DNA from: Methanobacteriota archaeon
GTDB taxonomy: Archaea > Halobacteriota > Bog-38 > Methanoflorentales > Methanoflorentaceae
DNA: 64,000 nucleotides
Assembly (NCBI GenBank): GCA_963720465.1
Contig: OY970393.1
Location: forward strand, 832,001-896,000
Direction of reading: 5' to 3'
Shown here: positions 50,456 to 52,128 of the stretch, one piece after another
Numbering within the stretch: the first letter of the stretch is position 1
Layout of the letters: each line of letters starts with the position of its first letter
The notes under the pieces: generated by a model
Seen by the model: the letters and a program-made list of their open reading frames with translations, nothing else
Told to the model about the DNA's origin: nothing
The model's database searches: none
Program-made: the position numbers and the translations under genes

Positions 50456-51019
50456 TCACACTTGATCAAGCATTTGATCGGACATGCCTTCCATCTCGTC
50501 TTGCGAAGGCCCTTTCTCAAACGTAGCGGCTTGAATCACGTCGTCTATTCGAAGGATCATGTTCGCGGCTTCAGTGGCCGACAAGATGGCTTGCTTCTTC
50601 GTTCTGAGAGGTTCGATCACGTCAGGCCACATATCTGTCGCTTTTCCCGTCGAAATCTGGAGCCCCATCGTTTTATTTCCCGATTCGTGAGCGGTCCTCA
50701 AACCAACAAGCGAGTCCATCGGGTCCAAACCCGAGTTTTCGGCAAGCGTTTTTGGAATAATTTCGATCGCGTCGGCAAAGGCGATGACTGCCAGTTGTTC
50801 CCTCCCGCTGAGCGTTGACGCGTAGTCGCGGAGTTGCATCGCGATCTCAACCTCCGGAGCGCTGCCTCCCGCGACGACTTTTCCATCTTCGATTGATGCT
50901 TGAGCGACTCGAACCGCGTCGTACACAGCTCGGTGAGTTTCTTCGACTTGATGATCGGCTCCCCCGTGAATGACGATACTGACGACGCGAGGGTTTTTAC
51001 AGTCTTTGATTGTTATCAT
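50456..51019 (-). CDS. thermosome (group II chaperonin) C-terminal part
   Basis: CKNP..VSI.IHGG, RAVYDA, AGGSAPE, LAENSGLD, ATEAA.MILRIDDVI; GGAGGT 6 nt before the ATG. Confidence 0.85.
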   Translation of the reverse strand: MITIKDCKNPRVVSIVIHGGADHQVEETHRAVYDAVRVAQASIEDGKVVAGGSAPEVEIAMQLRDYASTLSGREQLAVIAFADAIEIIPKTLAENSGLDPMDSLVGLRTAHESGNKTMGLQISTGKATDMWPDVIEPLRTKKQAILSATEAANMILRIDDVIQAATFEKGPSQDEMEGMSDQMLDQV

Positions 51020-51033
51020 TCCTAGACCTCCGT

Positions 51034-52128
51034 CTAATCAATGCCGCAGGTGTCACAGCCAGATTCTATGTCAGTTGTTTCTTCGATTTCGCCCGCGTTG
51101 CCCAAGTCTGATGCGCTGAGATCATTCAGGCTGGACACCACTCGGGCGCCGGTCACCTTAGAAATCGTCTCAATGTCCTCGCGTTTCACGTTCTCCACTG
51201 CCATCACGTTATTACGCGAAAAGTGCCATTGGAGTAGATCGTCGATACCCTTCTGGCAAAAGACGACGTTAGCACCGCTTGCCAAGATCTTGTCAGCCTT
51301 CTCGATCAGCGCTTCATGATCGCGTTCCATGAAAAGTTTCATTTGCGTTGGATCTTTTATTTTGATTTTGGCATCGGTCTTTGTTTTGGTAAGCTCGAGT
51401 GGTTGGTCATACACAAGGATGCGCGCATCGCATACTTTTCGCGGCATTCCCTCGGCAGCGCGTTCCTTGTCGACAACAACGCCTTCTACGAGTTCTGAAT
51501 CGGAAACAGAACCGGAAAGTTTCTTTTCAATTCTGATGTCATCCTCGTCGACCTTGTACGTGTTGTTGACTTTTTGCGCGACCATTTTCACCGCTTCAAC
51601 AACGAGCTGCGGAAGTATCTCAGTGCCCACGTCAGTGCCTTTGCCCGTGAGCGCCGTCTTTGCAATCTTCTTCAGCAGATCGTCATCGCGAATCGAAACG
51701 TTGCGCGACAGCAGTTCGGCGATCTCAATCGCTTTTTCTGCGGCGAGGCCGTAGCCTTTCTCTATAACCGTGGGGTGGATGTCTTGATCGAGCAATTCTT
51801 CTGCGTTTTTCAGCAATTCCCCAGCCAAGATAACCGCCGTTGTTGTCCCGTCGCCCACTTCATCATCCTGCGTTTTAGCGACTTCAACCATCATCTTAGC
51901 TGCTGGATGCTCAATATCCATCTCCTTCAATATCGTCGCGCCGTCGTTCGTTATAACCACGTCGCCCATCGAATCAACGAGCATCTTGTCCATGCCTTTC
52001 GGTCCGAGCGTAGTTCGCACTGATTCAGCTACGGCCCTGCTCGCGGTAAAATTCATTGACTGGGCTTCCCTGCCCTTCGTCCTTTGTGTTCCTTCGCGTA
52101 GAATGAGAATAGGTTGACCACCAATCAC
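51034..52128 (-). CDS. thermosome (group II chaperonin) N-terminal part
   Basis: [43 protein letters not shown] start after GGAGGT; ends ...[16 protein letters not shown]. Confidence 0.88.

Follow-up and report, generated by a model that had tools for sequence, protein, structure and literature searches.

The window analysed here is a stretch of 64,000 nt of contig OY970393.1, which belongs to the assembly GCA_963720465.1 of a Methanobacteriota archaeon (Methanoflorentaceae, Halobacteriota in the GTDB lineage). Its minus strand carries a gene pair encoding first the N-terminal part (N-piece) and then, after a short spacer, the C-terminal part (C-piece) of a group II chaperonin (thermosome). 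Re-examination confirmed the coordinates of the two open reading frames (ORFs), which had been noticed in an initial annotation made from the letters alone (Table 1). The host genome is a single contig of 2.31 Mb, contains mcrA, and harbours two intact thermosome genes (L001 and L002) in addition to the split one. We consider it probable, at roughly 80% for the proposed account as a whole, that the pair arose by a true, ancient fission of the third thermosome paralog in one family of uncultured mcrA-bearing Halobacteriota. Apparently, a subunit of a protein-folding machine is built there from two separate chains.

Table 1. Features of the split thermosome locus (positions in the window)
Feature	Position	Strand	Description
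N-piece gene	51034..52128	-	364 aa plus TAG (51036..51034), GTG start; equatorial-N, intermediate-N and nearly the whole apical domain including the lid
Seven extra C-terminal residues of the N-piece, C358-D-T-C361-G-I-D364	51037..51057	-	without counterpart in continuous thermosomes
Untranslated spacer	51020..51033	-	14 nt, ACGGAGGTCTAGGA; between the N-piece stop and the C-piece ATG
Shine-Dalgarno GGAGGT of the C-piece	51026..51031	-	GGAGG begins at -12 from the ATG
C-piece gene	50456..51019	-	187 aa plus stop; last apical strand, intermediate-C with the catalytic Asp (D34), equatorial-C with LRIDD
Shine-Dalgarno GGAGGT of the N-ORF	52136..52141	-	7 nt before the GTG
TATA-box-like element TTTTATATA in the block AAATTTTATATAGAACAAC	52164..52172	-	upstream of the N-ORF; assigned by position and archaeal TATA consensus

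Both pieces are recognised by the Pfam profile PF00118 (Cpn60_TCP1, cut-off 34.3). The N-piece matches profile positions 1-318 with 371 bits (E 1.2e-110) and the C-piece positions 324-489 with 185 bits (E 2.8e-54), and jointly they cover the profile except for positions 319-323. This agrees with the proposal of the initial annotation that the two ORFs together form a group II chaperonin, and the motifs GDGTTT and LRIDD as well as the catalytic Asp, which it had listed, are indeed present. The ATPase motif GDGTTT is kept in all 12 N-pieces compared, NDGATIL shows one conservative change (NDGAAIL in 1/12), and the catalytic Asp and LRIDD are kept in 14/14 C-pieces; D34 of the C-piece is aligned to D386 of Mm-cpn, the residue altered in the D386A entry 3J02. 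For these nucleotide-binding and catalytic motifs we assume the customary functional labels. In the alignment with Mm-cpn, residues 9-351 of the N-piece correspond to 7-346 and residues 1-180 of the C-piece to 353-534. The alignment with 1Q3R is gap-free, with residues 2-351 of the N-piece matching 4-353 and residues 1-170 of the C-piece matching 360-531. The equal length of the two N-terminal ranges in 1Q3R and the N-piece indicates that the N-piece has the built-in lid by which group II differs from group I; lidless Mm-cpn variants (3IZN) align to the same N-piece range with approximately 25 fewer residues, and the structure model of the N-piece has a helix at 260-284, in the lid region.

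Thus, the pair has the Pfam family, the ATPase motifs, the catalytic Asp and the lid region in common with canonical thermosomes (Mm-cpn 3KFB/3RUS, Thermococcus KS-1 alpha 1Q3R, T. acidophilum 1A6D, and the paralogs L001 and L002). These, in contrast, are single chains of approximately 540-560 aa, and to our knowledge the chaperonin subunits of all organisms consist of one chain of about 60 kDa. Here the subunit is cut in a turn which comprises 6-7 residues in intact proteins, while the N-piece has 13 residues at this site. Alignment with the two intact paralogs of the same genome sets EE-TTDIESG against EE-RKVGGDE, and Met1 of the C-piece against a conserved internal Met. According to this alignment, the extra material consists of CDTCGID, the stop codon and the spacer, which amounts to 38 nt here; where the spacer has 15 nt, as is more often the case, it is 39 nt (13 codons). 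The seven residues of the tail were defined as extra by alignment to the intact paralogs and to 78 continuous loci. Elsewhere in the genome the 38-nt insert has chance matches only (E of at least 1.6), and an origin from a repeat or a mobile element was therefore not found.

The ortholog search covered 41 related genomes and yielded orthologs with 80-98% identity in two genera of one mcrA-bearing family of the Halobacteriota. The 24 genomes of this family contain 21 orthologous loci with an assembled junction, and the gene is split at the same place in all of them, into two ORFs corresponding to those of 364 and 187 aa. The stop codon of the N-piece is TAG in 14 loci, TAA in five and TGA in two. 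All 14 loci of one genus use TAG, which in 11 of them is in frame with the C-piece, while the sister genus uses TAA, and TGA occurs in two loci. The spacer has a length of 14 nt in five loci, 15 nt in 12, 16 nt in one, 17 nt in two and 21 nt in one, and the C-frame is the same as the N-frame in 13 of the 21 loci, shifted by two in seven and by one in the remaining locus. The C-piece may start one codon earlier in five loci of the sister genus, whose spacers have ATG as their last three letters.

Both pieces are under strong purifying selection, with a median ratio of nonsynonymous to synonymous substitutions (dN/dS) of 0.071 for the N-piece and 0.048 for the C-piece (Nei-Gojobori method, 104 pairs). 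For this analysis 20 loci and pairs with a dS of 0.05-2.5 were used, and L025, in which the N-ORF is cut by a contig end, was dropped. Synonymous sites are saturated between the two genera, and the 20 full-length loci contain no further stops or frameshifts. Together with the 21 split junctions, the intact motifs and the RNA-library contigs spanning both ORFs (see below), the selection on both pieces strongly supports the idea of a naturally two-piece chaperonin subunit, which had been put forward in the initial annotation. The check proposed there, a look at related metagenome-assembled genomes (MAGs) for conservation of the split and of its ribosome-binding site, also came out in favour of this idea: the relatives do not carry a continuous gene at any of the 21 junctions, and an SD-like (Shine-Dalgarno-like) core is present in all 21 spacers.

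We found no fused ortholog in a collection of 5.8 billion proteins. At 80% identity or more, the N-piece matches 15 clusters (384 members), all of them 286-475 aa long; the one of 475 aa is an upstream-extended call which still ends in CGID. The C-piece matches 14 clusters (255 members) at 76% identity or more, all of them 187-197 aa long. The next matches beyond these close clusters have at most 65% identity (at most 62% for the N-piece, for which the best 8000 candidates by shared words were scored) and are thermosomes of 539-557 aa or fragments; the identity of the split subunit to any continuous thermosome does not exceed 62%. A fused ortholog was not found among proteins of 638-2000 aa either, a range outside of which thermosomes of normal length fall, and the best identity there was 56%. 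When the N-piece was compared with a contig collection without close relatives, only continuous thermosomes of other lineages were found, with at most 60% identity. Control thermosome loci from Methanoperedens, ANME-2, Methanocorpusculum, Methanoregula and others were continuous at the site of the cut in 78 of 80 cases, and the other two were cut by a contig end.

A survey of 151 genomes from 26 families of the phylum gave a similar picture. Among the matches listed, 18 orthologs from the family are in frames of 191-200 aa, and the other matches are in frames of 414-636 aa except for one broken paralog of 272 aa; the listing does not extend to 226 further matches. In G022 of the sister genus (5% contamination), a different thermosome paralog appears to be in pieces at C1:2271258-2272854, with frames of 311 and 272 aa. 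This break is separate from the conserved split and probably not conserved itself. Further, a cluster of 187 aa with 11 members (P0314) was considered as an independent split and rejected: it is a short gene call, since its related loci are the 80 control loci named above, 78 of them continuous and two cut by a contig end. Other matches of approximately 187 aa which start at the same Met are singletons on contigs of about 1 kb.

In a tree calculated by a quick method after removal of the CCT rows, a branch with a support of 100 in the Shimodaira-Hasegawa-like approximate likelihood ratio test separates the 20 split rows from all others. Trees with the three CCT rows are distorted by branches of 4-7 changes per site; in such a tree the split group needed two changes, and in 45% of the bootstrap trees one change. 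The tree points to a single origin of the split, which was probably followed by considerable divergence and then by slow evolution within the clade.

The signals for expression of the two genes are also conserved. Upstream of the N-piece, the block AAATTTTATATAGAACAAC and a GGAGG at -13 are kept in 20/20 orthologous loci from both genera, while the sequence further upstream diverges. The stretch AAATTTTATATAGAACAAC(A/T)ACTCTA... with GGAGG (52136-52175, minus strand; L005-L024) is near-identical between the genera despite the saturated synonymous sites. Based on its position and on its resemblance to the archaeal TATA consensus, we infer that TTTTATATA is a promoter element. The N-piece starts with GTG in 17 loci and with TTG in three, and in none with ATG. 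The 3' end of the 16S rRNA, ...GAUCACCUCCU, is complementary to GGAGGT, the hexamer that precedes both ORFs of the window, as the initial annotation had correctly stated. Crude start calls over the whole genome reveal a peak of GGAGG at -16 to -9, with the mode at -12 (18 counts against a background of 1-2), and the GGAGG of the C-piece at -12 is thus at the modal distance. A strict GGAGG was found more often before operon-internal starts (25 of 276) than before other starts (63 of 1818), based on crude ORF calls. All 21 spacers keep a purine-rich core (GGAGG, GAGAGG or GGGGAG) although their length and flanks vary. The pair thus has the properties of an operon-internal, SD-led gene pair, with both genes on the same strand, a short spacer, an SD at working distance and selection on both ORFs. 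It is plausible that the two pieces are produced 1:1 from one mRNA by means of the SD at the modal distance.

In the initial annotation, translational coupling had been attributed to a hairpin burying the stop codon, the ribosome-binding site and the ATG. The hairpin itself is found as the minimum free energy (MFE) fold of the junction, with -8.2 kcal/mol, but it is no better than shuffled sequences (z = -0.72; 47 of 200 shuffles are at least as stable) and the centroid is unstructured. It is the MFE fold in one of the 21 orthologous junctions and is absent already from the 98%-identical L006, and none of the 21 junctions folds better than its own shuffles. We read the hairpin as a product of chance, and coupling based on it finds no support in the shuffle test or in conservation. 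Thus, what was observed initially is partly confirmed, and its interpretation is partly supported.

Four peat runs were examined, comprising RNA libraries from three studies and an independent DNA run. Contigs from the RNA libraries (3/3 runs, three studies) cover the positions 50431-52130, 50342-52109 and 50431-52135 with approximately 97% identity to the window. Each passes from one ORF into the other without a gap or a joint at the junction. The region 52176-52242 has no cover by RNA contigs, while the peat DNA run continues there. In this DNA run (X5), a minor contig shows a 15-nt variant of the spacer, with an extra base at window position 51024 and a depth of 10.5 of 62.5. Since 14-nt and 15-nt spacers coexist in X5, strains with different relations between the N- and C-frames live side by side. 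The RNA contigs end at 52109-52135 with adapter letters beyond, in two cases 2-7 nt upstream of the GTG and in the third inside the ORF. Possibly these are RNA 5' ends. Lying downstream of the conserved SD, they would then be at odds with an SD-led start, a point on which contigs are not decisive. We favour an SD-led over a leaderless start of the N-piece because the SD at 52141-52136 is kept in 20/20 loci and the start codon is GTG or TTG.

The tail of the N-piece is well conserved. C358, T360, C361, G362, I363 and D364 are invariant in 19/19 loci, a count which leaves out L024 and L025, and synonymous variation is present in every one of those codons. In L025 the last residues of the N-piece are CDTCAI, and in two database clusters they are CGI. 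From this pattern of codon variation, the conserved Cys-x-x-Cys tail is a peptide which appears to have been selected as such. It has a pLDDT (predicted local distance difference test) below 50 in the model of the N-piece and no confident placement in the two-chain model.

Structure models were calculated for the N-piece alone and for the two chains together. Alone, the apical part of the N-piece reaches a pLDDT of 80-92 and the equatorial part 32-58. The two-chain model scored 0.84, as compared to 0.01 for the best control; in the benchmark the mark was reached by 58 of 80 solved complexes and by two of 110 mismatched pairs. The two-chain runs agree in at least 88% of the contacts, of which there are approximately 500, with a partner pLDDT of at least 82, and residues 344-352 of the N-piece contact residues 1-44 of the C-piece.

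Based on these observations, we propose the following course of events. Approximately 38-39 nt would have been added just before a conserved internal Met codon, in the turn of the last apical beta-hairpin, and would have supplied seven codons (C-x-T-C-G-I-D), a stop codon and an SD site. Both genes are probably present on one RNA, as in the RNA-library contigs. Translation of the N-piece would begin at GTG or TTG by means of an SD of its own, and that of the C-piece at the former internal Met codon by means of the spacer SD. The two chains would then assemble non-covalently into one thermosome-shaped subunit, which probably joins rings, possibly with the two intact paralogs. Selection preserves the ATP-binding motifs of the N-piece as well as the catalytic Asp and LRIDD of the C-piece, and the ATPase site would therefore be a composite of both pieces.

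The trivial explanation, which the initial annotation itself had offered next to a -1 frameshift, is that the gene is really continuous and that one base was lost by an assembly or sequencing error (GATTAG for GATTTAG). The arithmetic behind it is right, since with one more base ahead of the TAG the two ORFs become one (in the C-frame the ATG is preceded by codons for LDGGLG, which gives LDGGLG-M), and the genome is a single contig of 2.31 Mb; but this works in this genome alone. In the 13 loci whose halves are already in frame, they are separated by an in-frame stop, the frame is shifted by two in seven loci and by one in another, three different stop codons are used, and the spacers range from 14 to 21 nt. 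Further, the independent peat DNA and the RNA-library contigs show the same junction without an indel, in addition to the 15-nt variant, and the 384 and 255 database members have the short forms, with no fused form. We therefore regard a lost base as extremely unlikely. The in-frame stops and the three frame relations exclude a missing base and a programmed frameshift alike, and the same evidence makes it very improbable that one polypeptide is produced by recoding, either by a programmed -1 frameshift or by read-through of the stop. In some methanogens TAG is read as pyrrolysine, and the use of TAG throughout one genus, in frame in 11 of 14 loci, together with the presence of mcrA could speak for such a reading. 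Against it stand the TAA and TGA loci, the varying frame relation (0, 1 or 2) and the absence of PylS from the genome (best match 24.8 bits against a cut-off of 178, which the control M. acetivorans passes), and on these grounds TAG as pyrrolysine can be excluded. For frameshifting there is no slippery heptamer at ATT GAT TAG, the spacer evolves like untranslated sequence, varying in length while the SD core is kept, and the hairpin is not conserved. That the pair is a decaying third paralog, redundant beside two intact thermosome genes, would be in line with these two genes and with a long stem branch in the tree (0.52). However, a pseudogene is hardly compatible with dN/dS values of 0.05-0.07 on both pieces over saturated synonymous divergence, with 20 full-length loci free of further lesions, with intact catalytic motifs, and with the conservation of the promoter, both SD sites and both start codons; the sequence is also abundant in RNA-library contigs, although contigs do not prove level. 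Decay is therefore highly unlikely.

Two further explanations accept the split as real and differ from our proposal in the fate of the chains. The pieces could work apart, with the N-piece as a free apical 'mini-chaperone' or holdase and the C-piece in another role, and without a composite ATPase subunit. The confident model of the apical domain of the N-piece alone fits this possibility, and judging from its long stem and its new Cys tail the split clade may have changed its function to some extent. We nevertheless consider it unlikely, since the ATP-binding motifs on one piece and the catalytic Asp and LRIDD on the other are all under selection, the equatorial part of the N-piece is modelled poorly alone, and the two genes are always adjacent, 14-21 nt apart. 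Alternatively, the chains could be rejoined after translation, by split-intein-like trans-splicing or by ligation using the Cys tail, or the RNA could be repaired. A Cys does directly follow the last residue with a counterpart in continuous thermosomes, and intein-bearing thermosomes exist elsewhere: P0024 and P0025 are thermosomes of 854-865 aa with PF00118 and the LAGLIDADG intein domain PF14528 (the alignment covers 73% of the N-piece query), in which the reading frame is interrupted as in the split chaperonin. Unlike split inteins, the split chaperonin has no intein domain detectable by Pfam, and there is no room for intein blocks, because the N-piece has seven additional residues and the C-piece, which aligns from Met1, has no additional ones. 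Moreover, the first residue on the C side is Met and not Cys, Ser or Thr, and the RNA-library contigs show no joint. The probability of such a rejoining is in our view very small.

Several points weigh against the proposed fission of a functional subunit or limit it. The other three MAGs of the family are 59-64% complete and the junction is absent from their assemblies, one of them containing an N-terminal fragment with 97% identity. In L024 (G018, a single-contig genome), one extra G as compared to L020 changes the tail to CGNMRN, so that the second Cys is lost. Since the flanking DNA is identical to L020, this change is very recent or an assembly error, and unless it is such an error it indicates that a strain may lose its tail. 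With 0.52 changes per site, the split clade has a long stem, and in view of it some change of function after the fission is possible. In 14/14 C-pieces AGGSAPE is found where canonical proteins mostly have AGGG(A/S)PE, a family signature in what is presumably the Gly-rich motif (AGGG) near the nucleotide site (C-piece residues 50-56, window approximately 50854-50874). The RNA contigs prove neither one transcript nor its ends nor its level, and an RNA library may hold DNA. The pass of the two-chain model was to be expected and shows likeness rather than binding, since single-chain thermosomes have already been solved, and it adds little. Finally, we infer the assembly, the stoichiometry, the incorporation into rings and the ATPase activity of the split subunit from the features described above.

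It is tempting to speculate that the break and the tail together constitute a switch, a metal- or redox-dependent clasp at the cut hairpin in which the conserved Cys7 of the C-piece perhaps takes part, although we think that this is rather improbable. If true, the apical domain with its lid would be mechanically coupled to the ATPase core in a reversible manner, and this strictly anaerobic methanogen would thereby have a redox- or metal-gated chaperonin subunit.

Split genes are known from Nanoarchaeum and Methanopyrus. A split family-B DNA polymerase is described for Methanobacterium thermoautotrophicum and group B magroviruses in PMC5434244, where the word 'split' refers to a viral DNA polymerase. 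In such split archaeal and viral genes, likewise, the coding sequence of a conserved enzyme is divided between two genes, with the cut inside a domain, and the products presumably come together again without a covalent bond. In contrast to them, the two parts of the chaperonin gene have remained neighbours, probably on one RNA, with an SD between them, and the cut has gained a conserved tail with Cys residues. An internal His6 tag in the T. acidophilum thermosome, placed after Lys144 according to PMC4746591, was considered as evidence on the cut site and dropped, since it is located in another loop; a search on fragment complementation led to this paper and to no other. No paper on a split thermosome or chaperonin gene was found in the full-text literature, a search with subscription journals and supplements outside its reach.

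The split is of interest for several reasons. In the chaperonin cycle, force is transmitted from the ATP site via the intermediate domain to the apical lid. Here, a chain cut in the last apical hairpin has been maintained by selection in two genera, one of the resulting chains carrying the ATP-binding motifs and the other the catalytic Asp. The split subunit may therefore serve to find out, in a natural system, to what extent the allosteric cycle depends on a covalently continuous chain. The cut could also be a ready-made permissive site for the engineering of split or insertion variants, with a new conserved Cys motif in place. Last but not least, entries of 364 aa and 187 aa annotated as 'chaperonin GroEL (HSP60 family)' in peat and wetland metagenomes would be halves of one subunit and not fragments.

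In the window, the split genes are followed downstream by a DUF5788 gene on the minus strand, by a UPP-synthase-like gene on the plus strand, and by a rubredoxin-like ORF on the plus strand; the upstream neighbour is a divergent enolase gene on the plus strand. According to this arrangement, the two chaperonin genes stand as a pair. The neighbourhood beyond the C-piece stop is not conserved, since the RNA contigs of related strains diverge from the window from approximately 50431. The rubredoxin-like ORF (50171-50308) is convergent with the C-piece gene and encodes 45 aa with two CxxC pairs and the rubredoxin-like domain PF21349 (E 1.6e-9).

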